This document shows positions 1 through 16,355 of a stretch of DNA of 32,000 nt, piece by piece. Each line of letters opens with the position of its first letter. Position 1 is the first letter of the stretch. Source of the DNA: Nostoc sp. LEGE 12450 (lineage in GTDB: Bacteria; Cyanobacteriota; Cyanobacteriia; Cyanobacteriales; Nostocaceae); NCBI RefSeq assembly GCF_015206895.1, contig NZ_JADEXU010000074.1:1-32000 (forward strand). The letters are read 5' to 3'. The translations under genes and the position numbers were made by a program. The notes under the pieces were generated by a model. The model did no database searches and was not told the origin of the DNA. It saw nothing but the letters and a program-made list of their open reading frames with translations.

Positions 1-336
1 TTGACTCATCCTGAATCTCCCTAGCAGCAGCCAGAGCCTCGCTTAACAACTCTGGTGGCAATTTATCAGCCAAACTACTTAGGGCTTCGGCGCGACTTGA
101 CTCATCCTGAATCTCCCTAGCAGCAGCCAGAGCCTCGCTTAACAACTCTGGTGGCAATTTATCAGCCAAACTACTTAGGGCTTCGGCGCGACTTGACTCA
201 TCCTGAATCTCCCTAGCAGCAGCTAGTGCCTCGCTGAACAAATCAGGCAATTTATCAGCCAAACGATTTAGGGCTAAGGCGCGATAATACTTATCCTGAA
301 TCTCCCTAGCAGCAGCCAGTGCTTTTGAGAGTCCTA
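1..336. repeat. 96-nt tandem coding repeats (32-aa units) in the sensor domain of NLR-like locus B
   Basis: Positions 1-96 and 97-192 appear identical base for base. 193-288 is a diverged copy, and a fourth degenerate copy follows. The period is a multiple of 3 and in frame with the minus-strand ORF. Confidence 0.9.
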
Positions 337-1957
337 GTTGTTTTAGGTTTGGTGGCAGGTGATTGACTAGCTCTGTAAGCAAGTGTGCTTTATTTTGTGG
401 ATTCGAGCTTTGTAGCACGTAAGCTAGTCCTTGCTCAGGAGTCCAGACACTTTTTTGAACTAACGCAATCAACAGTTCTACTGGTAAATTAGCTGCCAGA
501 CTATTAAGGGATGCAATAATCAAAGCATAGCGACACTGTAAGCCAATAACTTGAGGCAGGGTTGTAAGAGTCCAAGAGCCTTCTGCCAATTGCCAAGCAC
601 GAGCAACATCAGTTACAAAGTTGGCAGTTTGTCCCAAGCGATCGCACGCTTTATACCAACCATTACCTCCTGTTTTTGACTCTTCACGCAATAAGGAGTG
701 AATCTCTTCTACTTGTTCAGCCTTTTCCAAATGCCAGACTAGACGTTGGTGGATATAACCGTCATTAGGGAGGGTATGCCAGAGATTTTTATCGGTTAAT
801 TTTTGGTACTTCTCTAAGAATTTGGTATGAGCTTGAGGCAGAGTTATACCTAATCCTGGTAGATTACCAAAGCGCTTCGGGTTTAGTGGAGCAGTTAACA
901 AATTACATGCAAGGTCATGAAATAAGTCATGTAAACGATAGGTTGGTGTTCCATCTATTAAAGGGACACCAGACAATAACAGTGCTTTAGAGTGCAAGTA
1001 GCCCAACTCATCTGCTGCATCCCGCTCATGATCCATATCCCACAGCATTACAGTCATTTGCTGAGTAATAGTTACATCCTCGGGTAATATTCCCAGCCAG
1101 ATGAAATTTTCTCGCGTAACGGGAGCTAATCGCTGGACACTCAAATTTAATGATGCAGTTAAACTGAGTTTTTTTAAGCTTGCTTCATCCGCCGCATCTC
1201 TAGCTGATTTATTATCTAATGTTTTTAAGCGGGCTACCTCTTGCTGCATATCCTGCACAAGAACTGTCCAAGGAGTACCATCACCAACTTGGGCAGCGGC
1301 TAGTTCCAATGCCAAAGGCAAGTAACCAAGCTCTCTTGCTAAAGCTTCTGCCGACTGAGTTTCTGTGTCAGTGAGGTCACGTCCTAATTTCTTAGTCAGC
1401 AGTTCCATCGCTTGGGATGGCTGCATCACATCCAGAGAATACGAGATGGCTCCGAGAACTTGGGCGATTCCTGCTTCGCGTGTTGTTACCAAAACTTGAC
1501 AACGCGCTCCACCAACATTAAATGCTTGTGCATCCTTTGTATCCCAAGCATCGTCTACTACTACCAGCACAGCTTTGTCATACAGCAGTGTACGCAGTTG
1601 ATTGGAAGCACCTTCTACGCTAGTAGCTTTAAAGTTGTTGTCCCCTAATACCTGTACCCAATCACTAAGCAGGGATAGAAGATGAGGCTGCTGACCTAAT
1701 GTTGCCCAGAGAATCCCATCACAAAAATGAGCTTGCACCTCTTGATCGTGCGCTAAAGCCATTGCGAGGGTTGATTTCCCAACAGAACCCAAGCCGTGAA
1801 TGGCAGTCACAACCAAAGTACGGACATCATTTGACTGTGCAAGCAGCCGAGTTTTTAAGTCTTGGCTATATTCGGGACGGTCAACGTAATAACTTGGCAG
1901 TGGTGGTGCTTGGAAAGGTTTTTTTAACTTTACCCATTCCCCAACGGGCGGCTGTAG
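1..1957 (-). CDS. NB-ARC (STAND) NTPase with C-terminal 32-aa HEAT/ARM-like repeats (NLR-like locus B body). The 3' end runs off the left edge, and the 5' end abuts the in-frame TGA at 1958-1960.
   Basis: I translated the minus strand by hand in the frame of the 1958-1960 stop. It is open for all ~652 codons down to position 2. It is absent from the ORF track because it has no stop in the window and no early start. Motifs: YVDRPEYSQDLKTRLL (pre-P-loop), Walker A GLGSVGKST, Walker B VLVVVDDAWD, VLVTTRE, and GYLPLALE (GLPL-type). The C-terminus is repeats of SRAEALSSLADKLPPELLSEALAAAREIQDES. The first canonical in-frame start after the TGA is TTG 1816 or GTG 1810, only ~8-10 codons before the P-loop. 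Confidence 0.8.
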
Positions 1958-2389
1958 TCAGGTGTTGTTAAATGTAATATTGTGACCACTGCCACCCTGA
2001 ATTACTGGCGCATTGGTGTTGTTAGCATTATTCTGTTGTCCTTCTCCACCATAGACATTCTGAAGATTTTGACCTTGAATCTGACCAATATTTATTTCTT
2101 GCTGAATCTCATGAGCCAGTTTCTGTATCTCTTGGGCAAAATTCGGGTCAGATTTCATCACTGGCTGTAAGTAAGCAGCAAGTTTTTCTAAATCTGGCTT
2201 AGACCCTTTTTCTGCTGAAGCAAACGCTGCTTCAGCCTCTTGGTTTCCATGAATCTTGTTCCAAATCTTGTCACGCAGCACTTTTATTTTGGCAAGAGTT
2301 GCTTCTGTGAATTTCTCAATTGTTTTCTCAAAAGCTTTAGTGAAAGCAAGAGTTGCGATTACACCAGCAGTAAGCGGTTCCATGTACAA
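1958..2389 (-). CDS. Small helical protein (143 aa) with an N-terminal hydrophobic helix (MYMEPLTAGVIATLAFTKAF) and a G/N/Q-rich tail. Candidate HeLo/Bell-like or effector-associated N-terminal module of NLR-like locus B (terminated form).
   Basis: ORF track. It is a paralog of 11300-11773, sharing the MEPLTAG start, a DP(N/E) helix and a GGE/GSG-NI tail. It ends at a TGA that is in frame with the downstream NB-ARC ORF. Confidence 0.75.
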   Translation of the reverse strand: MYMEPLTAGVIATLAFTKAFEKTIEKFTEATLAKIKVLRDKIWNKIHGNQEAEAAFASAEKGSKPDLEKLAAYLQPVMKSDPNFAQEIQKLAHEIQQEINIGQIQGQNLQNVYGGEGQQNNANNTNAPVIQGGSGHNITFNNT

Positions 2390-3086: not shown

Positions 3087-3493
3087 TAATTAGTAAATGG
3101 GTTTATATGGGACTAACTGAGTAGTGCAGACAAAAAGTGGAAACTGAACCCCCGCAAATTTTTCAGCTATTGCATTCTCCCTTGAATATCAGGAAATAGG
3201 AGTTATGGCAACATCTCTAAGTAATGGGCTAACAAAGAATATTTAGGTTCTTCATTACTTGTTATGCTAAAAATATCTATAAATTAGCTCATATCCCTTA
3301 CTGGGCAAGAAATACAGCTTTTAATCTTGACGTTTGAGTTTTTGAGATAAAATCTAGGTTCTAACTGCCTGAAACCCTTGATTTTAAAGCGAAATCCCTA
3401 ACTTTAGTTTGAAAAACACCTACGGAGGAGCCAATATTTATCCCAGTAATTAACTTTAGTTTATCCCTGCCTTGAAACCTTATTTCTTACAAC

Positions 3494-5161
3494 CTACTTA
3501 TATTCTGCAAACCATTCACACTGATTGCACCGCCATTTTAGCGCCTCTTTTTTAGGCAGATAAGATGAAAATTTAGGCAATTGCAAATATTTACTATCAA
3601 TTTCGCTATAGGAAGTACGCCGCAAACTAGGAGCAAGGTGTACCTGCATTGTCTCAGGGTTAATAGCAATTAGATTAAGGTCAAATAGTGTATGTATATC
3701 TGCCCGTAGGAGCAATCCATTTGAGGGGTGATTATTTTCAGTCTCAGTATAAGGAATGATGTGGGCAGCTTCCAAGGCTTCTTGTGCATCACATCCGGTG
3801 ATAGCACAGCGATAATTGTAGGCTTCGAGCAAACTTTGACGAAACTGAGGTTGTCCTTGCCGTCGAGCAATAGATATAGTGATTCGCTCTCTAGCTTGCT
3901 TTATACTTTTTGGATTGAAAAACCCGTCAGCCTCAATAACCGCAGTAAGCTCATTTATCTCTGCTAATTGATTGTGGTCAATCTTTTCTGAAATTCTCTG
4001 AATGTTTTGTTTATTAGTGTCTTCAACACGGTTATTTAAAATCGGTGGGTTAGCAGCAGACTTGTTTGTAGTTTCTACTTCTGTTGAGCTATCATTAACA
4101 GTTTCAGGGATTTCCTGAATGTCCTCAAGAATTGCATCTTTATCAGTAACATTGAAAGACTGGATGAGGTTCAGTGACTGCTGATAATATTCAACCCATC
4201 CACCTTGCTGATAAAGAGCAGCAGCTTTCTCTAAATCCTCAATGGCTCCTAGTTTATCACCTAATTGATAGCGGGCAAGACCACGGTATTCGTATACGTC
4301 AGGATATTTATCAGCAATCTTAATCGCATGGTTGTAATCTTCAATAGCTCTTTGATAATTTCTCAATTCATTGTAAGCATTGCCTCGGTTAATATAGTCA
4401 ACAGCATTGTTATAATCATTTTTATAAAAAGAAATTTCTTTACTGTAATCCTCAATCGCTCCCTCATAATCTCCCAGATTATAGCGAGCATTTCCGCGAT
4501 TGTTGTAGGTTGAGCAGTATCTAATCCGACTAGGATCTTTTTGAATTGCTGTGTTGTAATCCTTAATGGCTCCTTGATAATCTCCTAAATTAGCGCGTGC
4601 ATAGCCAAGGTCACTGTATAACTCAGCCCAATTGTAATAACCACAAAAATTACTAGGTGTTAGCTGAATTGCCTGTTCGTAATCCTTAATAGCCCCCTCA
4701 TAATCTCCCAATTCACTACGGGCTTGACCCCGTTGATAGTAAGCAGAGGGATAGTCAGGGTCAAGCTGAATTGACCTATCAGCATCTTCAAATGCTCCTT
4801 GGTAATTGCTCTGCTGGTAGTGCAATTCTGCTCGTAAATAATATGCAGAAGCATAGTTTGGATCTAGCTCAATCGCCTTGTTGTAATCCTCTATTGCTCC
4901 TTTATAATTTCTCAAGTTTCTGCGTTCCTGACCTCGCATACAATAAGCACTATCATCATTTGGATTTATGCAAATTGCTTGAGTATAATCCTCTATTGCT
5001 CCTTGATAGTCCCTTAGTAAATTACGAACGCTAGCTCGTTCTTTATAAGCATTAGCATCATTTCTATTTACCCGGATTTCTCTAGTCCAATATGTAAAAT
5101 CGCATTGTAATCTATTTTCATGACTCAAATCGTTTGGCAAAGCTTGATTATAATCTTCCAT
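3494..5161 (-). CDS. TPR-repeat protein fused to a C-terminal HNH endonuclease (HNH_2-like) domain
   Basis: The N-terminal ~330 aa are 34-aa TPR units (YQGAIEDYxxAIxLDPxxAxAYxxRG pattern). The C-terminus reads RRQGQPQFRQSLLEAYNYRCAITGCDAQEALEAAHIIPY...NGLLLRADIHTLFDLNLIAI, which is typical of the HNH_2 restriction-endonuclease-like family. Confidence 0.85.
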   Translation of the reverse strand: MEDYNQALPNDLSHENRLQCDFTYWTREIRVNRNDANAYKERASVRNLLRDYQGAIEDYTQAICINPNDDSAYCMRGQERRNLRNYKGAIEDYNKAIELDPNYASAYYLRAELHYQQSNYQGAFEDADRSIQLDPDYPSAYYQRGQARSELGDYEGAIKDYEQAIQLTPSNFCGYYNWAELYSDLGYARANLGDYQGAIKDYNTAIQKDPSRIRYCSTYNNRGNARYNLGDYEGAIEDYSKEISFYKNDYNNAVDYINRGNAYNELRNYQRAIEDYNHAIKIADKYPDVYEYRGLARYQLGDKLGAIEDLEKAAALYQQGGWVEYYQQSLNLIQSFNVTDKDAILEDIQEIPETVNDSSTEVETTNKSAANPPILNNRVEDTNKQNIQRISEKIDHNQLAEINELTAVIEADGFFNPKSIKQARERITISIARRQGQPQFRQSLLEAYNYRCAITGCDAQEALEAAHIIPYTETENNHPSNGLLLRADIHTLFDLNLIAINPETMQVHLAPSLRRTSYSEIDSKYLQLPKFSSYLPKKEALKWRCNQCEWFAEYK

Positions 5162-5446: not shown

Positions 5447-8236
5447 CTAGAGAGACATCCCTTTACCCTGTCTTCTTTCTTGTCGAAGAGCCTCTTCTCT
5501 TATTTCTTGCAATACACGCTCTGCTTTTTGCCAAAGCTGAATATCTTCTCTTTCTACTGACCCAATAGAAATCGGGGAATACTCAAGCTCACCTGACTGG
5601 TTTCGGTTGACTGCCACTCGAAAAATCTCACCTCGTTCATCATGGGTAAAGACCAGTTCTCTCCCCTGTTTCTCCAGAGTGGCACGTTTGAATCTAAGGC
5701 TATTTGAGCCAGTTTCTCTTAATTGCCAGTTGATTAATTCAACAGCAATAGGCACAGCCATCGCTAAGAATTCCGATTCTTTATGCTGCTTTTCATCGAG
5801 TGACTGTTCTGGTTCTGACTTTTGAGTTGCCAGTTGATTGCTAGCGATAAGTACTAATTCTCTGGCTTCATCTTGTGTCCATCCGGCTGGACTGGCAAAG
5901 ATAATTTCTTCAACATCTTGGGGTGACTTATTATCTAATAGCGCCCGTATAGCAATTTCTTTATCTCGGTCAGTCACTAATAAGTTTTGCAAGTCTGCGC
6001 TGTAATACTGATATAACTCGGCTGAAAGATTATCTTTTAACTTTGGTTCATCTGTGGTTATAGTTGGAGTTTGATTAAGAGCAATTGCGTCTACTGTTGT
6101 TTGCGATCTATGCAGTTGCTCCAAATAAACAATCGCTGCTTCCAGGTCGTCGAATATGGTTCTTCCGGCTGATAGCTGCTGCTGATTTTGAGAAAGTTGT
6201 TGTGTTAATTCTAATACTGTTTGGGTTAAAGCAGACTCGATAGCTGATTGCTCAATATAATCAAAGATTGATGAAATAGCTTTGTTTTCTGCGTGAGATT
6301 GCAACTCAGCCGTAACTGCTTCATCAAAGTCACTGAATGTAGTTTTAGCTGCAACTAGTTGTTGATGATATTGAGAAACTTGCTCTGTTAACCCTAATAC
6401 TGCTTGGCTTAAAGCTGACTCGATAGCTGATTGCTCAATATAATCAAAGATTGATGAAATGGCTTTCTGATCTGCATGGGATTGCAACTCAGCCGTCAAT
6501 GCTTCATCAAAGTCATTGAATGTAGTTTTATCTTTAACTAGTTGCTCTTTGTATTGAGACAGTTGCTCTGTTAATCCTAATACTGTTTCAGTTAAAGCTG
6601 ACTCGATAGTTGATTGCTCAATATAATCAAAGATTGATAAAATAGCTCTCTTCTCTGCATGAGATTGTAACTCAGCCGTCAATGCTGTTTCAAAGTCATT
6701 GAATGTAGTTTTCGCTTCAAGTAGCTGCTGATGATATTGAGAAACTTGCTGTGTTAATCCTAATACTGCTTGGCTTAAAGCTGACTCGATAGCTGATTGC
6801 TCAATATAATCAAAGATTGATAAAATGGCTTTCTGATCTGCATGGGATTGCAACTCAGCCGTAAATGCTTCATCAAAGTCATTGAATGTAGTTTTATCTT
6901 TAACTAGTTGCTGCCGATATTGAGATAGTTGCTCTGTTAATCTTAATACTGTTTCAGTTAAAGCTGACTCGATAGCTGATTGCTCAATATAATCAGAGAT
7001 TGACAAAATTGCTTTCTTCTCTGCGTGGGATTGCAACTCAGCCGTAAATGCTTCATCAAAGTCATTGAATGCAGTTTTAGCTCGAAAGAGTTGTTGCCGA
7101 TAAATAGATAGTTGTTCTGTTAATTGTGGCAACGTTTCAGCCAAGGCATCATCAACTACTGACTGTTCAATAAAGTCAGAGATTGCATCCACTGCTCTTT
7201 GTGATGATAGTCGTTGCTCTTTATTAACAATCGCGGCTCCCAGGTCGTCAAATGCGGTTTTTTCTGCTTCTTGCTGCTGCTGATACGCGGACAGTTGTTC
7301 TGTTAATTGTGGTAAAGTTTCAACCAAGGCATCATCAACTACTGACTGTTCGATAAAGTCAGCGATTATATTTATAAATCTTTGGCTCTCCACTGCTTGC
7401 TCTTTAGGATTCTTCAACAGATTCTCAATAAGCTCATCATCCCGTTGGGGCTGGTAGTCAATCCCCTTATGTTTTTGTAAACCTGGGAATGTGTAGGCAG
7501 GCCCCAAAGATGTGCCGCTAAATTTCTGGTCATTCCAAGAGTACGAAATGCCCTTACTTTTACCGTTGCGTGTTAAGCCATGACGAACTTCTACACCTTG
7601 TAGTTGCAACCGCTCAACCAGTTGGGGCATAGTTAGTTTATCTATTGTGGCGCGGTCGATTAGTTCCTGGAGTTGTTGCTTAATAGGGCGTTCTTGTGGT
7701 GTAAGGCGCTCACCATTGATATATTCAGAGTGTTCTCTTTCTAGCCGTTTTTGTTGTCCAATACTGGGATTACGCGATAATTTCTCATGACTGCTCTGGG
7801 TTTGTTGTAAACCATAATCTCGTTCTAGCTGCCGAATAATGGTTTCGCTACGCTTGTAATCCCAGCTATCATGTACAATCTTCCCGTTATCTAACCGAAT
7901 GCGGCTGGCGCAGATATGGATATGGTCATGCTCTGTGTTGCTATGTCTGTAAACAACGTACTGGTTACTGTCAAAGCCCATCTCTTCGAGATAGCGGTTA
8001 GCAAGTTCGTTCCAGGTTGGTTCGTCTAGTCGCTCGTTGTCTGGTAGTGATAATGATGCGTGATACACTACACGGTCAGCTTCTGGGTTTAGTTGTCGGG
8101 AAATTTTGAATTCTCTGGCCAGGGCACGGGCGTTATTGCCGCCCATATTGCCACCAATGAGTTTGGCATCTTTCTGAGACTCCAAATAATTCAGCAGTCC
8201 GCGAAACCCTCGCCCTTTAGTCTGGTTGCCAATCAT
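5447..8236 (-). CDS. Mobilisation relaxase (MobA/VirD2-type N-terminal domain) with a long internal 61-aa tandem-repeat region
   Basis: The N-terminus reads GRGFRGLLNYLE..., then VVYHASLSLP, then the histidine triad HSNTEHDHIHICASRI (HxDxxxHxH type). It overlaps the upstream MobC-like gene by 20 nt. Confidence 0.9.
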   Translation of the reverse strand: MIGNQTKGRGFRGLLNYLESQKDAKLIGGNMGGNNARALAREFKISRQLNPEADRVVYHASLSLPDNERLDEPTWNELANRYLEEMGFDSNQYVVYRHSNTEHDHIHICASRIRLDNGKIVHDSWDYKRSETIIRQLERDYGLQQTQSSHEKLSRNPSIGQQKRLEREHSEYINGERLTPQERPIKQQLQELIDRATIDKLTMPQLVERLQLQGVEVRHGLTRNGKSKGISYSWNDQKFSGTSLGPAYTFPGLQKHKGIDYQPQRDDELIENLLKNPKEQAVESQRFINIIADFIEQSVVDDALVETLPQLTEQLSAYQQQQEAEKTAFDDLGAAIVNKEQRLSSQRAVDAISDFIEQSVVDDALAETLPQLTEQLSIYRQQLFRAKTAFNDFDEAFTAELQSHAEKKAILSISDYIEQSAIESALTETVLRLTEQLSQYRQQLVKDKTTFNDFDEAFTAELQSHADQKAILSIFDYIEQSAIESALSQAVLGLTQQVSQYHQQLLEAKTTFNDFETALTAELQSHAEKRAILSIFDYIEQSTIESALTETVLGLTEQLSQYKEQLVKDKTTFNDFDEALTAELQSHADQKAISSIFDYIEQSAIESALSQAVLGLTEQVSQYHQQLVAAKTTFSDFDEAVTAELQSHAENKAISSIFDYIEQSAIESALTQTVLELTQQLSQNQQQLSAGRTIFDDLEAAIVYLEQLHRSQTTVDAIALNQTPTITTDEPKLKDNLSAELYQYYSADLQNLLVTDRDKEIAIRALLDNKSPQDVEEIIFASPAGWTQDEARELVLIASNQLATQKSEPEQSLDEKQHKESEFLAMAVPIAVELINWQLRETGSNSLRFKRATLEKQGRELVFTHDERGEIFRVAVNRNQSGELEYSPISIGSVEREDIQLWQKAERVLQEIREEALRQERRQGKGMSL
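6104..7385. repeat. Seven 183-nt (61-aa) tandem repeats inside the relaxase gene
   Basis: The anchor gattgctcaatataatc recurs at 6246, 6429, 6612, 6795 and 6978, with diverged copies at 7161 and 7344. The period is exactly 183. The protein units resemble AILSIFDYIEQSAIESALTETVLGLTEQLSQYRQQLVKDKTTFNDFDEAFTAELQSHADQK, with two alternating subtypes. Confidence 0.9.
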
Positions 8237-8729
8237 CTGTTTCCTCGTCCGATTCTTCGATGAAGGTATTGGCTATTTCCCGTTGGCAGTGTCGTAGCAG
8301 TTCTAGTAACTCTTGTAGAAGTTCTGGTGATGCTGGCGGTGGCAACTGCATTTTAATGGCGGTATTGGTGGCTTTGGCCAGTTGGTTGATGTTGTTGCCG
8401 ATGCGCGACAGTTCCAGGTATGTGTCTAGTGTAACTCTGCCCAGTCGCGGCGGTGGTGGTGGGATTGGTCGCAGTAACATACATCGTCTTGTCAATTCTC
8501 CCAAGCTCAAGCCCGTATCTTCTGCTTTAGAGCGAATCATCTCATATTCAATCGGGCTGAATCGCGCTTGCAACATTTTGGTGCGGACGAGTGACTGAGA
8601 AGAAGCTTTGGGCATAAGTAAAACTTGAGTTGATGCAGTTTTTGAGGGGGTTTCCAAAGTGGGGATACTTCCCCCTTTGGCAAGCCTGCCGAGTCGAGCT
8701 TTAGCGAGACAGCACGCAGTGCTAGGCAT
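8217..8729 (-). CDS. mobC: MobC-family relaxosome accessory protein. The true start is possibly ATG 8615 or 8576 rather than 8729.
   Basis: The sequence RFSPIEYEMIRSKAEDTGLSLGELTRRCML...YLELSRIGNNINQLAKATN matches the MobC pattern (RHH-like N-terminus plus GNNLNQ). It is translationally overlapped with the relaxase. The 5' 38 codons contain a strong hairpin and may be non-coding. Confidence 0.8.
   Translation of the reverse strand: MPSTACCLAKARLGRLAKGGSIPTLETPSKTASTQVLLMPKASSQSLVRTKMLQARFSPIEYEMIRSKAEDTGLSLGELTRRCMLLRPIPPPPPRLGRVTLDTYLELSRIGNNINQLAKATNTAIKMQLPPPASPELLQELLELLRHCQREIANTFIEESDEETDDWQPD
8654..8680. promoter_or_regulatory. Candidate oriT-type inverted repeat upstream of (or in the 5' extension of) mobC
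   Basis: ccaaagtgggga (8654-8665), tact, tccccctttgg (8670-8680). This gives an 11-bp stem with one bulged T and a 4-nt loop. The location is typical for an oriT IR, but I recognised no nic consensus. Confidence 0.3.
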
Positions 8730-9053
8730 GGCTTGCTCTGAACCAGTTTTTGGGGGAGGCAGAAGGACTAGGGGTACAACCCACTAGGGGACAAAGCGCG
8801 TAATCTCTGGATACCACAACCATGATATTACTAAGGAGTTAATGTAAATTACACTGTGTCAATTATTCGTGATAAGTCTGTGATTTATATTTGATTAACT
8901 GTTCGTGAGTTATCTTACACGCTATGAGTAATCAATGTTCAACCAATTACGTTAATATCTATTGCTGTTTCTTAACCAATTGTTGCATTGATAATTACCT
9001 GTCTTTAGATAGATGCTGCATATTCAAGTAAAGTTTTAAACATAAACATTAGT

Positions 9054-9596
9054 TTGATTTTTACTCTTGTGGCTAAAGACAATATTCCTAAGTCGAAGAT
9101 TCCAGACGCTCTTGATGCTCTACGCGCTTTGGGTGCTAAAGAATTAGATGATATCCCAGCACGAGCAGCTATTAAAAAGATGCGCCGTCAAATTGAGCGG
9201 GTGCTTCGTCTCGGATATAGCTACGAGGAAGTGTCTAAAACTTTAGCCCCTTTGGATATCAACATCAGCCCTGAACGTATCCGTTATTTACTTAACGATA
9301 TTCGTCGGTCTACACGCAAAAAGTCAGTTACTACTCCAAGTCTTGAGAATACTAGTACACCAGTTATTGATGAGCCGGCAGTTAGTGAGGATTCGACTTC
9401 TGAGCAAAGCACTAATCAGTCTGTTCAAAAATCAGAACCAGAATCAAAACCAGAATCAAAACCAGCTTCTTCAAAATCAACAACTACTAAAACTCCTAAA
9501 ACGGCTAAAAAGACCTCTGATGCTAAGGCTCTAGAGAATCAAAATTCCTCTCGCCTTGCTTTTGTGCCTGAAATAATAAACGACGAGGATTTGTAG
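9054..9596 (+). CDS. Hypothetical protein, possibly a DNA-binding partner of the ParA-like ATPase. It has a low-complexity K/S/T/P/E tail.
   Basis: TTG-start ORF immediately followed by the ParA-like gene (TAG then ATG). The segment IPARAAIKKMRRQIERVLRLGYSYEEVSKTLA looks HTH-like. The tail reads KSEPESKPESKPASSKSTTTKTPKTAKK. The start codon is uncertain. Confidence 0.55.
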   Translation: MIFTLVAKDNIPKSKIPDALDALRALGAKELDDIPARAAIKKMRRQIERVLRLGYSYEEVSKTLAPLDINISPERIRYLLNDIRRSTRKKSVTTPSLENTSTPVIDEPAVSEDSTSEQSTNQSVQKSEPESKPESKPASSKSTTTKTPKTAKKTSDAKALENQNSSRLAFVPEIINDEDL

Positions 9597-10376
9597 ATGG
9601 TAGTCAAACCTAAACAATCGGATGACCAAGTTCAGGAACAAAAGGCAACTGAACAGCCAAAAAATCTTGGGCGCTTGGTGTTGGTGACTGGTGATAAGGG
9701 CGGGACTGGTAAAAGTGTCATGGCTAGAATCCTACTCGACATTTACCGCCACAGAAATATTAACTGCATCGCTTACGAGTGTGACCAGTCTAATCCTCAG
9801 CTTTATCGTCATTACAACAAAGTCGCTCCTGGCGTGCAAACGCTCAAACTAAATCAGCGCGGTGGTGCTGATGCTTTGCAGGATGATTTAAAACGTTTAT
9901 CTCCTCAAGTTTCCCTTGTGGATCTGCCTGCTGGGGCTGCTGAGTATTTTGAGTCAGTCGCTAAGGATATTTTTCTGTTTCAAAATGCCCAGCGTTTGGG
10001 TTATCGCATCACTATGGTGTCGGTGCTGGGTCGGGTTAAAGATAGTCTGTTGCAGTTAAAACGGCTGGTGGATTTCTGCGGCGACAAAGTTGATTATGTA
10101 GTTGTGAAAAATCTTTACTGGGGTGATGAACACAAGTTTACTCGCTACAACAATTCTAAGATGAAGCAGGCTGTAGAAGCATTGGGGGCAATTGAACTGT
10201 TATTGCCTGAGTTGTATGACGATATTTTTGACCTCGTTGACTCCAAGGATCTAACATTCAGGGAGGCGTTAGAGCATGAGGATTTTAGTTTGAGTAATCA
10301 ATCGAGAGTTTATGGCTGGATTGATGCGGTTGAGACTGAGTTTTCTAAGGCGGCTGTACAGTTGGGGTTAGAGTAA
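9597..10376 (+). CDS. parA: ParA/MinD/VirC1-family deviant Walker-A ATPase
   Basis: LVLVTGDKGGTGKSVMA matches the KGGxGKS deviant Walker A. The size (259 aa) and plasmid context fit. Confidence 0.85.
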   Translation: MVVKPKQSDDQVQEQKATEQPKNLGRLVLVTGDKGGTGKSVMARILLDIYRHRNINCIAYECDQSNPQLYRHYNKVAPGVQTLKLNQRGGADALQDDLKRLSPQVSLVDLPAGAAEYFESVAKDIFLFQNAQRLGYRITMVSVLGRVKDSLLQLKRLVDFCGDKVDYVVVKNLYWGDEHKFTRYNNSKMKQAVEALGAIELLLPELYDDIFDLVDSKDLTFREALEHEDFSLSNQSRVYGWIDAVETEFSKAAVQLGLE

Positions 10377-11110
10377 TGGCTGTAAGTAATGGTAATGGCA
10401 ATGGTACGGTATCTCATTTAGATAGGTTGCTGTCAGAAAAGCCACCGGAATTTCAAGCGAAAGTGTTGCGGTTTGCTTTAGATTCTGGAATGAAACAAGA
10501 TGACCCAGCATTTCGACTGGTGCAGTACATTGGATATTTGGCGCAACTAACAGAAACTGCTCCGAATGATTGGAAGTTATTATTTGAAAATTTACAAGAT
10601 GAGTTAAACCAATGGAGTCAACTGACGGCGGAGCAATTGAAGGTTCAAGCCGACCACACGGAGAACATCAAAAATCTGGCGACCAGCTGCAATCAGCTAG
10701 GGACAGCCTTGAGCGCATTAAATCTAACATCTCAGCAACAACTCAAGCAATTGACGAGCTTAACCAAACTCTCCGAGAATTTGAACAATATCTCCCCCAG
10801 GCAACCAGAGACATTGAGCAAACCGTTGCAAGAACAATTGAACGAGATTCAGACGGGAATATCTCTATTGAACCAAAAAGACGTGGAATCAGTCGTTAAA
10901 GGTTGGACTAGAGCTATTAGAATCTGGCTTGTCTCTCCGATCTCATTTTTTATTCTGTTTTGGTTTTATTCACACATGACCCCAATCCCTACTCCTATTG
11001 AAACTACTGAGTCTCTACAGAAGATTTTGCAGAATACTGATTGGAGTAATGCCAAGCTTCAACGGGTTGAGAAAAAGTTGGGGACAGATCCAAACCGAAG
11101 ACGACGATAA
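10376..11110 (+). CDS. Hypothetical coiled-coil protein with a C-terminal transmembrane segment
   Basis: Its ATG overlaps the parA stop (TAATG). It has a Q/L-rich coiled-coil region and a hydrophobic stretch, IWLVSPISFFILFWFY. Confidence 0.7.
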   Translation: MAVSNGNGNGTVSHLDRLLSEKPPEFQAKVLRFALDSGMKQDDPAFRLVQYIGYLAQLTETAPNDWKLLFENLQDELNQWSQLTAEQLKVQADHTENIKNLATSCNQLGTALSALNLTSQQQLKQLTSLTKLSENLNNISPRQPETLSKPLQEQLNEIQTGISLLNQKDVESVVKGWTRAIRIWLVSPISFFILFWFYSHMTPIPTPIETTESLQKILQNTDWSNAKLQRVEKKLGTDPNRRRR

Positions 11111-11299: not shown

Positions 11300-11773
11300 A
11301 TGGAGCCATTAACTGCTGGTACGTTGATGCTTGCTTTCGTAGGAAGTAAACTCATTGATTGGTCAATTGGCAAAGCTTTTGATGCAGCTTATGACACAGC
11401 CAAGCAAGTTCTGGCAAAGAAATCTCCTGAAACGGCAGAGGCTTTAGCAGCCGCAGCAGAACAAGCTTCATTACCCGCCGCAGAGCGAAAAAATATTGGT
11501 GTTGCTGTTTTGGTAGATAAAGTAGAAAAAGTAGCGCAGGCAGATCCGGAGATTAAAGATGCAGTGGAAGCGTTAGGAAATCAAGCCTACGCCTCTGCAC
11601 AAGATAATCCTGCTCTGGCAAAGGCTATTCAAGAGTTAACACAAACCATTAAAGCTCAAAAACCACCCAGCCAGAACCCAGCCAAAATAGCGGAAACAAT
11701 CGGAATTAACGAACAGAATATTTCAGGTGGTGAGGTTGTTCAGCATTTTGGTTCAGGTAATATCCAAATTTGA
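11300..11773 (+). CDS. Small helical protein (157 aa) with an N-terminal hydrophobic helix (MEPLTAGTLMLAFVGSKLI) and a G/N/Q-rich tail. Candidate HeLo/Bell-like N-terminal module of NLR-like locus A (terminated form).
   Basis: ORF track. GAGGTAG lies 4 nt upstream of the ATG. It is a paralog of 1958-2389. It ends at TGA 11771-11773, in frame with the NB-ARC-TPR ORF. Confidence 0.75.
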   Translation: MEPLTAGTLMLAFVGSKLIDWSIGKAFDAAYDTAKQVLAKKSPETAEALAAAAEQASLPAAERKNIGVAVLVDKVEKVAQADPEIKDAVEALGNQAYASAQDNPALAKAIQELTQTIKAQKPPSQNPAKIAETIGINEQNISGGEVVQHFGSGNIQI

Positions 11774-14023
11774 CTACAGTCGCCCGAACGGGAACGGGTA
11801 AAGTTAAATCCCCCACAAAATATTCCTCCTAGTAGCACAGATAAATTTGTCGGACGAGAAAGAGAATTAGAACGCCTCCAACAACAGTTACAATCCAATC
11901 ATGCGGTGGTAATTGCTGCTGTGGAAGGGATGGGGGGAGTTGGTAAAACCGAATTAGCAATCCAATATTCACTACTAAATTTGCAGTTGCACAGCTACCC
12001 TGGCGGTATCTGCTGGTTAAGAGCTAGAGAGTCAGATATTGGGTTACAAATATTACAATTTGCTACAATAGACTTGGGTAAAAAGCCGCCAGAAGATTTG
12101 GAGTTACTAGAACGAGTACGTTGGTGCTGGCAACATTGGCGGCAGGGGAATACGCTAATAGTCCTTGATGATGTTAATAGTTACAGTCACATTGAACCGT
12201 ATCTACCACCCCAACCATCTCAATTTCAGGTACTAATTACTACACGCCTAAAGCTAGATTTACTTAGTTCTCTGTTTTTGAAAGTTTTATCAGAAACAGA
12301 CGCACTCTTGTTACTAGCTCAATCAATTGGAGAAGCAAAGCAAAACCAAGAATTAGCACAAGCCCAAGAAATTTGTCAGCGTTTAGGCTATTTGCCCTTA
12401 GCTTTGCAATTAGTCGGTAGGTATGTAAAGAGACACAAGATATCATTAGCTGAAATACTGCGACGCTTAGAGGAAAAAGGATTAGCTCATCCTTCGTTAG
12501 TTGTGAAAGAAAATGACCCCACTTGGAATTCAAATGTCAAACTTGGAGTAGCGGCGGCTTTTGAATTAAGTTGGGAACAATTAAGTAATGATGCTCAACA
12601 GTTAGGTTGTTTAGTAAGCTTATTTGCTTTAGCTCCGATTCCTTGGTCGTTGGTGAAACGTGCCGCTCCAGAGGAAGACCAAGAAGAATTAGAAGATGCC
12701 AGAGTTGAATTAGAAAATTTGCATTTGCTACAAGGTGAAAAAACTTATGAATTACATCAGCTAATTCGTGAATTTCTGAGAGACAAGCAAAAAAACTTAG
12801 CTACTGCGTCAGAGCAAAAGTCTCATTTCTGCCAAACAATGGTAGAAGTGGCAAAGGAAATTCCCTCTTCACCTACTCAAAAATTCATTAGTTCAGTCAA
12901 AGATGATATGCCACATTTAGCAGAGGTGGGACAAAATTTGATTGATGCAGTCACTGATGAAAACTTAATTTGGGTTTTTTATGGCTTAGATAGATTTTAC
13001 TCTGGACAGGGTTTATATACTCTAGCAGAACCTTGGGATGAGCTATGTGTATCAGTAGTAAAACATCGCTTGGGAGAAGAACATCCCAATGTCGCTACCA
13101 GTTACAACAACCTGGCTTTACTCTACTATTCCCAAGGGCGGTACAGCAAAGCCGAACCACTGTATCTAAAAGCTTTGGAACTCAGGCAACGGCTGTTGGG
13201 AGAAGAACATCCCGATGTCGCCACCAGTTACAACAACCTGGCTGTACTCTACCATTCCCAAAGACAGTACAGCAAAGCCGAACCACTGTATCTAAAAGCT
13301 TTGGAACTTTGGCAACGGCTGTTGGGAGAAGAACATCCCGATGTCGCTATTAGTTACAACAACCTGGGTGGGCTTTACCATTCCCAAAGACAATACAGCA
13401 AAGCCGAACCACTGTATCTAAAAGCTTTGGAACTTTGGCAACGGCTGCTGGGAGAAGAACATCCCGATGTCGCCACTAGTTACCACAACCTGGCTTTACT
13501 CTACTATTCCCAAGGACAGTACAGCAAAGCCGAACCACTGTATCTAAAAGCTTTGGAACTCAGGCAACGACTGCTGGGAGAAGAAAATCGCAATGTCGCT
13601 ACCAGTTACAACAACCTGGCTTTACTCTACTATTCCCAAGGACAGTACAACAAAGCCAAACCATTGTATCTAAAAGCTTTATTACTCAGGCAGCGGCTGC
13701 TGGGAGAAGAACATCCTGATATCGCTACCAGTTACCACAACCTGGCTTTACTCTACTATTCCCAAGGACAGTACAACAAAGCCAAACCATTGTATCTAAA
13801 AGCTTTATTACTCAGGCAGCGGCTGCTGGGAGAAGAACATCCTGATGTCGCCACCAGTTACCACAACCTGGCTTTACTCTACTATTCCCAAGGACAGTAC
13901 AGCGAAGCCGAACCACTGTATCTAAAAGCTTTGAAAATTGCTGAACTTAGCTTAGGGGTAAATCATCCCAGCACAGCCACTATCCGTAAAAATCGGAAAT
14001 ACTTGTGCAATAATTGCCTTTAA
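11774..14023 (+). CDS. NB-ARC (STAND) NTPase with a TPR sensor (NLR-like locus A body). The ORF track starts it at GTG 11906, but the conserved domain begins right after the TGA.
   Basis: Codons 11774-11905 are open, in frame and have no ATG/GTG/TTG. They encode LQSPERERVKLNPPQNIPPSSTDKFVGRERELERLQQQLQSNHA. Downstream motifs are GMGGVGKTELA (P-loop), LIVLDDV (Walker B), VLITTR and GYLPLALQ (GLPL). Seven 42-aa TPR units follow. Confidence 0.85.
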   Translation, partial: LQSPERERVKLNPPQNIPPSSTDKFVGRERELERLQQQLQSNHAVVIAAVEGMGGVGKTELAIQYSLLNLQLHSYPGGICWLRARESDIGLQILQFATIDLGKKPPEDLELLERVRWCWQHWRQGNTLIVLDDVNSYSHIEPYLPPQPSQFQVLITTRLKLDLLSSLFLKVLSETDALLLLAQSIGEAKQNQELAQAQEICQRLGYLPLALQLVGRYVKRHKISLAEILRRLEEKGLAHPSLVVKENDPTWNSNVKLGVAAAFELSWEQLSNDAQQLGCLVSLFALAPIPWSLVKRAAPEEDQEELEDARVELENLHLLQGEKTYELHQLIREFLRDKQKNLATASEQKSHFCQTMVEVAKEIPSSPTQKFISSVKDDMPHLAEVGQNLIDAVTDENLIWVFYGLDRFYSGQGLYTLAEPWDELCVSVVKHRLGEEHPNVATSYNNLALLYYSQGRYSKAEPLYLKALELRQRLLGEEHPDVATSYNNLAVLYHSQRQYSKAEPLYLKALELWQRLLGEEHPDVAISYNNLGGLYHSQRQYSKAEPLYLKALELWQRLLGEEHPDVATSYHNLALLYYSQGQYSKAEPLYLKALELRQRLLGEENRNVATSYNNLALLYYSQGQYNKAKPLYLKALLLRQRLLGEEHPDIATSYHNLALLYYSQGQYNKAKPLYLKALLLRQRLLGEEHPDVATSYHNLALLYYSQGQYSEAEPLYLKALKIAELSLGVNHPSTATIRKNRKYLCNNCL
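13070..13951. repeat. Seven 126-nt (42-aa) tandem TPR-coding repeats with very high nucleotide identity
   Basis: The unit start ttgggagaagaacatcc recurs at 13070, 13196, 13322, 13448, 13574, 13700 and 13826. Two consecutive units (about 13604-13860) are nearly identical over more than 110 nt. The protein unit is LGEEHPDVATSYNNLALLYYSQGQYSKAEPLYLKALELRQRL. Confidence 0.9.
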
Positions 14024-14159
14024 AGCTAGTGTAAGAGAGCGATTTTTTGCGGAGAAGATAGGTGACAATTAAGCTGGGATTTTAAGCGTTAATCATCCCA
14101 AAACCTTGAAACTTTGTAGACGCAAGTTTGGTGTAACGAACAGTGTGCTGAATATTGTT

Positions 14160-16355
14160 ATGGCTTCTCGTAGTAATCCACTTCGTGTCAACTTAGTTTT
14201 TGCAAACCTGATTCGTGGCAATCTAGGTGGTGCCTTTCGGATTCTTAAAAATTTGATTCGTGCCAATCTGATCTATGCCGATCTGCACCAAACCAACCTC
14301 AGCAGTGCTAACCTCAGCAGTGCCAACCTCAGCAGTGCCAACCTCAGCAGTGCCAACCTCAGCAATGCCAACCTCAGCAGTGCTAACCTCAGCAGTGCCA
14401 ACCTCAGTAGTGCCGACCTCAGTAGTGCCGACCTCAGTAGTGCCGACCTCAGTAGTGCCAACCTCAAGAATGCTAACCTCAAGAATGCTAACCTCAAGAA
14501 TGCTAACCTCAGTAGTGCCTATCTCTATGGTGTAATTTTCAACAAAAACACACAGATTGCTGTTAAATGGCGTTTGGTTTGGAAAATTGTTAATCAGGGA
14601 GTCAAAGATGGAGATTTAAGTAATACAGACCTCAGTGGTGTCAACCTCAGTGGTGTCAACCTAAGTGGTGTCAACCTAAGTAGTGCCAACCTCAGCGGTA
14701 CCAACCTCAGTGGTGTCAAGCTTTACCGTGCCAACCTCAATAGTGCCAACCTCAATAGTGCCAACCTCAATAGTGCCAACCTCAGTAGTGCCAACCTCAG
14801 TAGTGCCAACCTCAGCAGTGCCAACCTCAGCAGTGCCAACCTCAGTAGTGCCGACCTCAGTAGTGCCGACCTCAAGAATGCTAACCTCAAGAATGCTAAC
14901 CTCAAGAATGCTAACCTCAAGAATGCTAACCTCAGTAGTGCCTATCTCTATGGTGTAATTTTCAACAAAAATACACAGATTGCTGTTAAATGGCGTTTGG
15001 TTTGGGAAATTGTTAATCAGGAAGTCAAAGATCGAGATTTAAGTAATACAGACCTCAGTGGTGTCAACCTCAGTGGTGTCAACCTCAGTGGTATCAACCT
15101 CAGCGGTACCAACCTCAGCGGTACCAACCTCAGTGGTGTCAACCTTTACCGTGCCAACCTCAATAGTACCAATCTCAGTAGTGCCAACCTCAGCGGTACC
15201 AACCTCAGTAGTGCCAACCTCAGTAGTGCCAATCTCAGCAGTGCCAACCTCAGTATTGTCAACCTTCAGGATACTGATCTTTCAGGTGCTGATCTCCGCG
15301 ATGCTTATCTTTCAGGTACTGACCTCCATCGTGCCAACCTCAGCAGAGCCAACCTCAGCAATGCCAACCTTCGCGATGCCAACCTTCGCGATGCCAACCT
15401 TCGCGATGCCAACCTCAGAACTACTGACCTCGGTAGTGCCTATCTGTATGGTGTAATTTTTAACGAAAAGACACAAATTGGTAGCAAATGGCGTTTGGTT
15501 TGGGAGATTGTTAATCAGGGAGCCAAAGGTCGAGATTTAAGTAATGCCGACCTCAGCAGTTCCAACCTCAGCAGTTCCAACTTCCGCGATGCCAATCTCA
15601 GCAGTGCTAACCTCAACGGTGCTAACCTCCGCAGTGCCGACCTTCGCGGTGCCGACCTCCGCGGTGCCGACCTCCGCGGTGCTAAACTTTACGGTGTAAT
15701 TTTTAACGAAAAGACGCAAATTGGTAGCAAATGGCATTTGGTTTGGGAGATTGTTAATCAGGGAGCCAAAGGTCAAGATTTAAGTAATGTCGACCTCAGC
15801 GGTGCAGACCTCAGCGGTGCAGACCTCAGCGGTGCAGACCTCAGCGGTGCTAACCTCAGCGGTGCTAATCTCAGCGGTGCTAATCTCGGCGGTACTAATC
15901 TTAGTGATGCCGACCTCCGCAGTGCTAACCTCAGCGGTGCCTATCTTTACAGTGCTAACCTCAGCGGTGCCGACCTCAGAGGTGCCTATCTCTATGGTGT
16001 AATTTTTAACGAAAAGACGCAAATTGGTAGCAAATGGCATTTGGTTTGGGAGATTGTTAATCAGGGAGCCGAAGGTCGAGATTTAAGTAATGTCGACCTC
16101 AGCGGTGCAGACCTCAGCGGTGCTAACCTCAGCGGTGCAGACCTCAGCGGTGCAGACCTCAGCGGTGCTAACCTCAACGGTGCCAACCTCAACGGTGCCA
16201 ACCTCAAGAATGCTAACCTCAATGGTGCTTATATTTACAGTGCCAACCTCAACGGTGCCAACCTCAACGGTGCCAACCTCAAGAATGCTAATCTTGAAAA
16301 CACCTTATTTGATAGCAGTATAGGACTTAGAGATCGCATGAAGCATAACTTTTGA
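14160..16355 (+). CDS. Multi-module pentapeptide-repeat protein (six A(D/N)LSx blocks separated by five conserved linkers). The ORF is open from TTG 14106.
   Basis: Long runs of [15 protein letters not shown] pentapeptides. The linker AYLYGVIFN(K/E)xTQIxxKW(R/H)[17 protein letters not shown] recurs at about 14519, 14941, 15440, 15686 and 15983. ATG 14160 gives MASRSNPL... Confidence 0.85.

Follow-up and report, generated by a model that had tools for sequence, protein, structure and literature searches.

How can a reading frame that is interrupted by a stop codon serve a bacterial cell both as a small protein and as part of a large one? The question is raised by two loci, A and B, within the first 32,000 nucleotides (nt) of contig NZ_JADEXU010000074.1 of Nostoc sp. 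LEGE 12450, the stretch of DNA that was analyzed at its full length and is referred to here as the window. At each locus, a small open reading frame (ORF) that starts with MEPLTAG ends at a UGA codon, and both TGAs are in frame with a downstream ORF for an NB-ARC protein of the NOD-like receptor (NLR) type (Table 1). The answer toward which we lean is that programmed UGA readthrough produces a rare Bell-tail-NLR sensor alongside an abundant free Bell-tail effector, the two having one signaling motif in common. By analogy, each locus would then be a one-gene version of a Bell/BASS-NLR amyloid-signaling pair (BASS, bacterial amyloid signaling sequence), a reading that we hold with some confidence.

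The small proteins provide the first part of the argument. A degenerate DNA pattern for MEPLTAG matches the window at small ORFs A and B only, with 0.04 matches expected. The stretch from residue 4 to residue 16 is hydrophobic: its Kyte-Doolittle means are 1.61 (A) and 1.39 (B), versus -0.12 and -0.52 for the whole proteins. Alignment A1 shows little or no variation at M1, E2, P3, T5, G7, A8, and A10, which are followed by a helical middle part and a variable tail. An AlphaFold2 (AF2) model of protein A, of moderate confidence (predicted local distance difference test score, pLDDT, 64.8), contains six helices (residues 3-14, 25-41, 43-56, 68-81, 83-102, and 104-120), and residues 121-157 are disordered in it, with a pLDDT below 50 for the tail.

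Relatives of these proteins are consistently small. A database search with protein A identified 43 homologues of 132-166 aa each, all from filamentous cyanobacteria, and the homologue set overall (database homologues plus genome loci) spans 122-166 aa. A profile search of 1.8 billion cluster representatives returned 319 relatives; among the 150 listed, nearly all are shorter than 175 aa and none is a full-length NLR. Pairwise similarity between A and B is weak (BLASTP E 0.001-0.004). A family hidden Markov model (HMM) from which protein B was left out nevertheless detects it at E = 2e-7 against a background of 3,796 ORFs, and residues 1-91 of protein B share 64% identity with the small protein of plasmid pCC7120gamma (Nostoc PCC 7120).

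Protein A is 47% identical (E = 2e-29) to the small protein of locus L012 (L numbers denote individual loci). This locus is OYE01691.1/OYE01692.1, a BASS7 Bell/NLR pair listed in Table S2 of Dyrka et al. 2020. Because this relative is a listed Bell/NLR pair, we consider that the window proteins very probably belong to the published Bell-domain family. Bell-domain proteins are described as short (about 120-140 aa) and helical: their N-terminal helix is hydrophobic, position 2 or 3 is acidic, and a globular all-alpha domain of about 100 aa is predicted to form a helical bundle (Dyrka et al. 2020, bioRxiv 10.1101/2020.01.06.895854). Proteins A and B have the sequence homology, the short length (157 and 141 aa), and the acidic residue in a hydrophobic N-terminal helix, and the AF2 model of protein A, at its moderate confidence, is a helical bundle. 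Bell folds reportedly vary in topology. By comparison with the published description, MEPLTAG corresponds to the conserved 'MEPIS'-type N terminus of Bell/HeLL/Avast2 proteins (Ibarlosa et al. 2024, bioRxiv 10.1101/2024.11.07.622273). In Escherichia coli Bab, such a domain was shown experimentally to execute abortive infection once amyloid-activated (Ibarlosa et al. 2024).

Pfam and NCBIfam scans of both small proteins gave sub-threshold noise only. In the literature, membrane targeting and cell death are known for Bab and its fungal relatives only, and it is by analogy with these that the Bell domains of the window may form pores. A previous reading of this DNA from its letters only (the sequence-only reading) had placed MEPLTAG at both starts with a hydrophobic stretch behind it and G/N/Q-rich tails directly before the TGAs. 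Translation, pattern search, composition, and hydropathy agree with these calls and their coordinates. It had also proposed a membrane-targeting module related to Bell or to the HeLo and HeLo-like domains of fungal effectors; homology to listed Bell proteins upholds the former, and the latter, together with SesA, drew no Pfam match.

The tails, 32 aa in protein A and 44 aa in protein B, are compositionally unlike the rest of the proteins. G, N, and Q make up 38% of tail A and 59% of tail B versus 12-14% of the helical parts, and K, P, and L make up 5-6% of the tails (6% in A, 5% in B) versus 24-25%. According to the published bias, a BASS motif occupies about 20-30 aa at the extreme C terminus of the effector, is enriched in Q, N, G, V, and I, and is depleted in K, P, and L. 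Both tails have this position and this composition. Tails A and B and those of very divergent Acaryochloris proteins have in common N-[IL]-S-G-G-E-V-[YVF]-Q ... G-x-G-x-I-x-I. The motif is kept across helical domains that can barely be aligned, which argues against its being a mere linker. The tail type of locus A (winA-type) is also present in L001, L002, L004, L037, L042, and L043.

What such tails may do is suggested by the related loci, which fall into three architectures: canonical pairs, loci with a conserved cassette at the UGA (UGA-cassette loci, to which both window loci belong), and a few degraded loci. In the 23 canonical pairs tabulated, the stop codon of the small gene is TAA, TAG, or a TGA sharing bases with the following ATG (ATGA). 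The tail of the small protein recurs as the first 25 residues of the NB-ARC/TPR (tetratricopeptide repeat) protein encoded next, for example ...ENWQGINIKGGENTISNPTLNFGSK and then MTSENWQGINIKGGETNIHNPTINIGSS.... The mean alignment score between tail and NLR head is 86 for cognate versus 60 for noncognate combinations of these 23 loci. Motifs of the canonical pairs are BASS7. Other loci have BASS5-like pairs (KIAETIGKIG..., weakly matched) or BASS9 (KGWQTKVEGGTAYI).

HMMs for four of the ten defined families (BASS2, 5, 7, and 9) were built from Table S2 sequences or NLR-side motifs. With the HMM made solely from NLR-side heads, cassette loci L039, L027, L033, and L035 give tail matches at E 1e-8 to 1e-11, and the BASS9 HMM matches the tail of the cassette locus of PCC 7120, the closest relative of protein B, at E = 6e-7. 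In sister loci, the position immediately ahead of the UGA is therefore occupied by bona fide BASS motifs. The BASS5 HMM matches L032 and L029 weakly. The window tails appear from their sequences to be BASS-like and are left unclassified. Of what the sequence-only reading proposed for them, the common pattern (QN-x-x-GGE, then G-x-G-(x)-NI-x-I/F) is found in both tails and recurs in relatives from Nostoc and Acaryochloris. Its idea of an amyloid-like signaling motif agrees with their position and composition, and with the BASS7 and BASS9 motifs of sister loci, but not with any defined BASS profile tested. As an observation apart, the gene that follows the Bell/BASS7 protein in L021, L023, and L030 (Brasilonema and Scytonema) encodes a 260-aa non-NLR protein with no Pfam match. 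This protein starts with a BASS7-like motif and continues with ...NLSTSGGEVVPF..., which is reminiscent of tail A.

The two loci also resemble each other in what follows the stop codon. The 38 nt after the two stops are identical at 33 of 38 positions, and the flanking proteins are about 30% identical. We identified the cassette in about 30 loci from three cyanobacterial orders, on both plasmids and chromosomes, with the consensus TGA CTACAGyCGCCCGAACGGGAACGGGTAAAGTyAAATCCCCC. Its hosts are Nostoc, Calothrix, Dendronalium, Iningainema, Microseira, and Acaryochloris, and the loci include that of pCC7120gamma of Nostoc sp. PCC 7120. Every cassette locus examined has a TGA codon and a long in-frame downstream ORF that lacks a conserved start codon. 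Position +4 is C in 25 of the 29 sequences listed, and +5 is T in all of them. A set of 41 genome loci was fetched with the N-terminal peptide alone as the pattern, ignoring the stop codon, and none of the 41 has a sense codon at the UGA position. An uninterrupted Bell-NLR fusion is absent from the 43 homologues, from the 150 listed of the 319 cluster representatives, and from the 41 genome loci. A pattern that specifies the RNA structure alone has a TGA 11 nt upstream in 22 of 22 matches.

Taken as sequence evidence, these features make recoding at the UGA likely. An alternative genetic code was rejected because TGA is the ordinary stop of 5 of the 19 other long ORFs of the window. We also rejected a start codon overlapping the stop, as in the ATGA pairs: locus A has a TTG at -1 whose frame closes after 20 codons, and locus B has CTG. 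Scanning the window for a suppressor tRNA or tRNA-Sec (the selenocysteine tRNA) found none. Nothing was found in the literature on readthrough in Bell/NLR genes or bacterial defense genes, and Dyrka et al. 2020 make no mention of stop codons or readthrough.

Some loci depart from the consensus. L172-L174, on metagenome contigs, have A at +4 (TGA-ATA) and a G-C closing pair in stem S1 (see below); they are chromosomal and adjoin an aminotransferase gene. The L176/L177 variant has TGA-CTG, and a sister contig adjoins PsaF/PsaJ genes. These chromosomal settings show that the system is not confined to plasmids. In L004 (Floridaenema aerugineum, 4484-4490), a winA-type small protein with its tail is followed by TGA-CTG, and the same frame goes on to encode a NACHT-HEAT-TPR protein longer than 1,300 aa. 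This locus lacks the conserved cassette and has an ATG at +66; the arrangement may reflect readthrough or coincidence.

The cassette has features of an RNA signal. A gap-free alignment of 22 cassettes (A5) has a 5-bp stem, S1, at +12 (GCCCG/CGGGU), with 100% of cells paired. Two of its pairs show compensatory changes: four sequences, from Dendronalium and Acaryochloris, have U-A for C-G, and one has U-A for G-C. There is also G-U, G-C, and A-U alternation. RNAalifold independently predicts S1. The loop GGGA can pair with UCCC nine nucleotides downstream to form a second stem, S2, in which 95.5% of cells are paired; L043 and L044, with a longer loop, have AGGAGG/CCUCCU in place of GGGA/UCCC. 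The covariation score was matched by none of 500 shuffles, and pairing falls to 51-57% when the partners are slid by one column. As judged from sequence, the structure is likely a compact pseudoknot of the H type, its third loop being rich in A; support for the pseudoknot stem S2 is only moderate. An Rfam search of positions 11600-12000 at a permissive E-value found nothing relevant. Codon use is constrained as well. Identical amino acids are encoded by the same codon at a rate of 0.80 in the first 14 codons after the UGA versus 0.40 over the next 246, and the best-conserved downstream columns have 35% same-codon use.

Downstream of the cassette, the frame remains open and under selection. Continuations past the UGA run for 650-1,300 codons, and post-UGA ORFs have ratios of nonsynonymous to synonymous substitution rates (dN/dS) of 0.28-0.35 (NLR A versus L042, 0.31; NLR B, 0.28-0.35). 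NLR A comprises the NB-ARC domain and eight TPR_10/TPR_12 units. Its first canonical start past the UGA is a GTG at 11906, six codons before Walker A. As this lies just before the Walker A glycine, a whole NB-ARC domain is not obtainable from that start. Across loci, the first ATG, GTG, or TTG past the UGA occurs at variable offsets (+66 to +306 nt), often at, inside, or beyond Walker A. Public annotations start the NLRs of cassette loci at ATT, ATC, GTG, or TTG with offsets of 0 to +306 nt; the plasmid records L165-L171 and L178 have ATT at +48 and +63, ATC just upstream of Walker A, and TTG beyond Walker A. Such noncanonical or implausible starts reflect the lack of a start codon. Cassette loci resemble a canonical pair minus the NLR-side motif and the start codon, as expected if readthrough supplies both. 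They combine an in-frame continuation that is under constraint without its own start, a stop codon of constant identity in a leaky context, and a spaced RNA structure with covariation.

What lies behind the cassette varies. It precedes ORFs for NB-ARC-TPR, NB-ARC-helical repeat, NACHT (L043 and L025), CHASE2 (L001), and CarboxypepD_reg+GUN4 (L024) proteins. NLR B is 80% identical to the NLRs of L037 and L170, and the upstream small proteins are only 31-38% identical. From these sequences the cassette appears to mark a junction for module shuffling. The repeat DNA is unusually uniform in both NLR genes, with 126-nt TPR units in NLR A (6.8 copies, 91% identity, 13071-13933 on the plus strand) and 96-nt helical units in NLR B (3.4 copies, 92% identity, 1-319 on the minus strand). 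Fungal NLRs have a similar repeat uniformity, which is linked to repeat shuffling and diversification.

Table 1. Coordinates in the window of the features of loci A and B
Feature	Position	Strand	Remarks
Small ORF A, Bell-type helical domain and C-terminal tail	11300..11770	+	157 codons; TGA at 11771-11773
MEPLTAG motif and hydrophobic helix 1, putative membrane-inserting helix	11300..11359	+	alignment A1 conservation, hydropathy, AF2
Tail A, NPAKIAETIGINEQNISGGEVVQHFGSGNIQI	11675..11770	+	BASS-like, unclassified; contains 11687-11770, the interval of the sequence-only reading, which translates to IAETIGINEQNISGGEVVQHFGSGNIQI and is followed by TGA 11771-11773
In-frame UGA of locus A, proposed readthrough codon	11771..11773	+	context UGA-CUA
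Recoding cassette A (proposed)	11774..11815	+	8-nt spacer; S1 11782-11786 with 11795-11799; putative pseudoknot S2 11790-11793 with 11809-11812
NLR ORF A	11774..14023	+	NB-ARC ~11858-12442; TPR_10/TPR_12 ~13079-13945 (Pfam)
Small ORF B, Bell-type domain of a second subfamily and tail	1961..2383	-	141 codons; ATG at 2383
Tail B, INIGQIQGQNLQNVYGGEGQQNNANNTNAPVIQGGSGHNITFNNT	1961..2095	-	BASS-like, unclassified; followed by TGA 1960-1958
In-frame UGA of locus B	1958..1960	-	context UGA-CUA
Recoding cassette B (proposed)	1916..1957	-	S1 1949-1945 with 1936-1932 (GCCCG/UGGGU); position of S2 3' strand uncertain
NLR ORF B	1..1957	-	NB-ARC ~1855-1292; APAF1_C ~841-689; 96-nt helical repeats 319-1; runs off the window

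Several results weigh against this interpretation. Tails A and B fit none of the BASS2, 5, 7, and 9 HMMs (E 0.1 to 23). The BASS7 HMM gives E = 2.4 and 3.5 with the window tails and the BASS5 HMM E = 16-23 with tail A. With the BASS2 HMM, tail B reaches E = 0.11, winA-type sister tails reach about 12-16, and tail A has no match within E 50; the BASS9 HMM does not match the window tails. No second copy of the tails lies past the UGA or elsewhere in the two loci, and neither the related loci nor the protein database yielded an NLR with an N-terminal copy of the winA-type tail; the templating role of the window tails therefore rests on analogy with sister loci. By that analogy, we regard amyloid templating by the two tails as slightly favored. 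A tail-plus-junction profile search, weak with its 115 candidates, returned three small-protein fragments and neither an NLR with an N-terminal copy nor a sense-codon fusion. In a metagenome scan with the loose pattern CTACAGNCGCCCGNNNNGGA, each of the 120 matches listed arose by chance in a GC-rich contig or belonged to an unrelated repeat.

Other adverse points concern the effector domain, the RNA, and the ribosome. Pfam HeLo, HeLo-like, and SesA give no match to either protein at E up to 1. A Foldseek search of the AF2 model, which reaches moderate confidence only, against the PDB has a best E of 2.5 and all TM-scores below 0.3, and a sequence profile search of the PDB found designed coiled coils only. 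The relationship to HeLo and MLKL therefore rests on the literature. Covariation in S2 is thin, with a single A-U and a single G-U in A5 besides the L043/L044 variant, and both locus B and PCC 7120 have the 3' strand of S2 at a shifted position. In minimum free energy, the cassettes are no better than shuffles (z -0.7 to +0.4; pseudoknots not modeled). In L179 (Acaryochloris marina S15 plasmid, 3418-3423), the sequence is TGAGTG, so that a GTG directly after the TGA permits reinitiation. RefSeq starts the NLR of L179 at that GTG; in this locus, possibly a derived variant, termination-reinitiation may replace or accompany readthrough. To our knowledge, pseudoknot-stimulated readthrough is established for eukaryotic and not for bacterial ribosomes.

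Some of these points could be accommodated by an all-in-one NLR with a leaky stop and no amyloid signaling, in which the tail is a flexible linker, the UGA and pseudoknot set a low level of the fusion, and the free short protein acts as a dominant-negative or decoy regulator or is just a by-product. That tails predicted to be disordered fit no BASS profile tested, that the NLR bears no second copy of the motif, and that published Bell domains are also fused directly to NLRs would all suit such an arrangement. We nevertheless consider it unlikely, given that the motif N-I/L-S-G-G-E-V-Y/V-Q...G-x-G-x-I-x-I is kept from Nostocales to Acaryochloris despite barely alignable helical domains, that sister cassette loci have bona fide BASS7 and BASS9 motifs at the same position, and that tail composition follows the BASS bias; moreover, a by-product is unlikely to be retained as the major translation product in about 30 loci. 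Recoding would be dispensable altogether if the loci were two separate genes, with the NLR translated by termination-reinitiation or from a noncanonical internal start and the hairpin serving coupling or mRNA stability. Against this stand a post-UGA codon that is mostly CUA and not a start, a first ATG, GTG, or TTG that is often inside or beyond the Walker A strand and would leave a crippled NB-ARC, a downstream ORF that is always in frame 0, as overlap coupling does not need, and 14 post-UGA codons with conservation at both the protein and the RNA level. In canonical Bell/NLR pairs, coupling via the ATGA overlap is frequent, L179 has its GTG right after the TGA, the post-stop codon is CTG or ATA in some loci, and public annotations show separate genes, but on the whole we find the two-gene arrangement quite improbable.

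An in-frame UGA with a short spacer and a conserved hairpin with Gs in its loop also fits, superficially, the loose layout of a bacterial selenocysteine insertion sequence (SECIS), in which case the UGA would encode selenocysteine (Sec). However, the UGA lies in a variable linker without a nearby Cys or redox motif, no homologue has Cys or any sense codon at its position, the loop seems to pair downstream, the window encodes no tRNA, and surveys class the cyanobacteria examined (other species than these) as not Sec-decoding; we judge this possibility very remote. Finally, one in-frame stop that splits an apparent single gene could signify a pseudogene or an assembly error, that is, N-terminal-Bell NLR genes broken by nonsense mutations. 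Degraded loci do exist: L041 has a short continuation, L038 has a TAA and a frameshift, and L035 has a continuation of 99 codons. We give this explanation almost no credence, as the codon is TGA, never TAA or TAG, at the same position in about 30 loci of three orders, finished plasmids included, the flanking 45 nt are ultra-conserved, and the downstream ORFs are intact over 650-1,300 codons with dN/dS of about 0.3.

Returning to programmed readthrough, we propose the following sequence of events. Termination at the UGA would yield abundant free effector of 141-157 aa, consisting of the helical Bell-type domain and a disordered G/N/Q-rich tail, with the MEPLTAG helix as its predicted membrane-inserting element. 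A minority of ribosomes would decode the UGA as sense, most likely as Trp via a near-cognate tRNA, aided by the weak UGA-C(U) context and by the hairpin or H-type pseudoknot that starts 8 nt past the stop. These ribosomes would enter the NB-ARC/NACHT and repeat sensor and produce the rare Bell-tail-NLR protein. Upon sensing of a presumed trigger by the repeats, the NLR would oligomerize and bring its tails together. Once clustered, the tails may fold as cross-beta and impose that fold on the identical tails of the free effector, a templating step that the sequence-only reading had already put forward as a hypothesis. Templating would release helix 1, and the resulting membrane damage would kill the cell, as in abortive infection or non-self responses.

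The arrangement can be compared with several known systems. Bell/BASS-NLR pairs (Dyrka et al. 2020) involve the same protein family in cyanobacterial hosts: a short helical effector with a hydrophobic N-terminal helix and an acidic position 2, a C-terminal motif of about 25-45 aa rich in G, N, Q, V, and I, and, immediately downstream, a collinear NB-ARC or NACHT gene with TPR repeats. Those pairs, however, are two ORFs with their own starts, and the motif is written twice, at the C terminus of the effector and at the N terminus of the NLR. At the window loci, the NLR has neither its own start nor its own motif and lies in frame behind a conserved UGA and an RNA structure; unlike the listed BASS pairs, the window tails fit none of BASS2, 5, 7, and 9. 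N-terminal Bell-NLR fusions have been described as rarer (Dyrka et al. 2020). The readthrough product would resemble such all-in-one proteins in its order of Bell, NOD, and repeats, but those have no stop codon and no need of an amyloid motif.

Bab/Agp of E. coli likewise has a small Bell-related effector with a 'MEPIS'-type helix and a C-terminal amyloid motif in common with the adjacent sensor, and it is the experimental basis for membrane targeting and amyloid activation (Ibarlosa et al. 2024). It differs in its shorter Bab domain (about 80 aa), its two separate genes, and its lack of recoding, and the window proteins have no sequence or fold match to solved structures. The fungal HET-S/NWD2 and HELLP/PNT1 systems are similar in logic, in that the terminal motif of an NLR oligomer templates the identical motif of a HeLo/HeLL pore-former. 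There, the NLR motif nucleates the cross-beta fold and the N-terminal helix of the pore-former enters the membrane. Unlike in the fungal signalosomes, we detect no homology to Pfam HeLo, HeLo-like, or SesA; the fungal genes are separate; and the fungal motif is at the N terminus of the NLR, whereas that of the window would be internal, between Bell and NB-ARC.

For the recoding signal, the closest parallels are viral. The cassette combines the UGA-CUA context of type II signals, known from alphaviruses, with the +12 position of the H-type pseudoknot at the gag-pol junction of Moloney murine leukemia virus (MoMLV), its own structure being placed at +12 by the 8-nt spacer (PMC13517186). Common to the viral signals and the cassettes would further be a compact H-type pseudoknot whose third loop is rich in A and, as proposed here, a minor extended and a major short product. 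In contrast to the viral signals, the cassette is in a bacterial gene, read by a 70S ribosome with release factor 2 (RF2), and its structure is far smaller (about 31 nt, 5 bp plus 4 bp) and predicted from sequence. For A1 of coliphage Q-beta (UGA-A), a known bacterial case of readthrough, a structure requirement is not reported and is listed as 'n.c.' (PMC13517186). We think it fairly probable that the loci contain a dedicated readthrough signal of a bacterial cellular gene (UGA-CUA, 8-nt spacer, +12 pseudoknot), convergent with the retroviral and alphaviral ones, that makes sensor and executioner from one ORF with one copy of the motif, the 45-nt cassette being a portable junction. Bell/BASS-NLR signaling is already known; the readthrough-coupled single-motif architecture and a structured signal of this kind in a bacterial gene were not found in the literature searched.

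The surroundings of the two loci include mobile and other putative defense genes. Positions 5447-11110 are a plasmid backbone with a MobA/VirD2 relaxase (5447-8236, minus strand), NikA/MobC (8217-8729, minus strand), a 180-aa ORF, a ParA-like ATPase (9597-10376), and DUF6753 (10376-11110), the last of which immediately precedes locus A. On metagenome contig L042, genes in this order likewise lie ahead of the cassette locus. Within the relaxase gene, a 183-nt unit is repeated in tandem (5.2 copies, 6173-7124). Immediately downstream of NLR A, 14106-16355 (plus strand) encodes a 749-aa pentapeptide-repeat protein with A/S-N/D-L-S-x units, and in its DNA 15-nt units are nested in higher-order repeats of 243-423 nt. 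On the minus strand, the gene at 27651-30296 encodes an 881-aa protein with an N-terminal Cap4-type double-stranded DNA endonuclease and a STAND NTPase (weak nSTAND1/AAA_16 matches), and from its sequence looks like a third, Avs-like NLR defense gene of the window. Another defense or conflict gene may be that at 3494-5161 (minus strand), for a 555-aa protein in which TPR repeats at the N terminus and an HNH_2 endonuclease domain at the C terminus are predicted.

Fungi and animals have amyloid-based cell-death signaling, to which Bell/BASS-NLR pairs are the bacterial counterpart. If the proposed reading is true, a whole subclass of these bacterial systems, including the locus of the model strain Nostoc sp. 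PCC 7120, is misannotated as a 'hypothetical protein' and an N-terminally truncated NLR. The loci would also be a rare instance of structure-stimulated programmed readthrough in a bacterial cellular gene, a mechanism that has so far been mainly eukaryotic-viral. Sensor and effector, being the same translation product up to the stop codon, would keep matching motifs and a skewed ratio, and the arrangement would thereby fix the stoichiometry of sensor and effector and guarantee the identity of their motifs.

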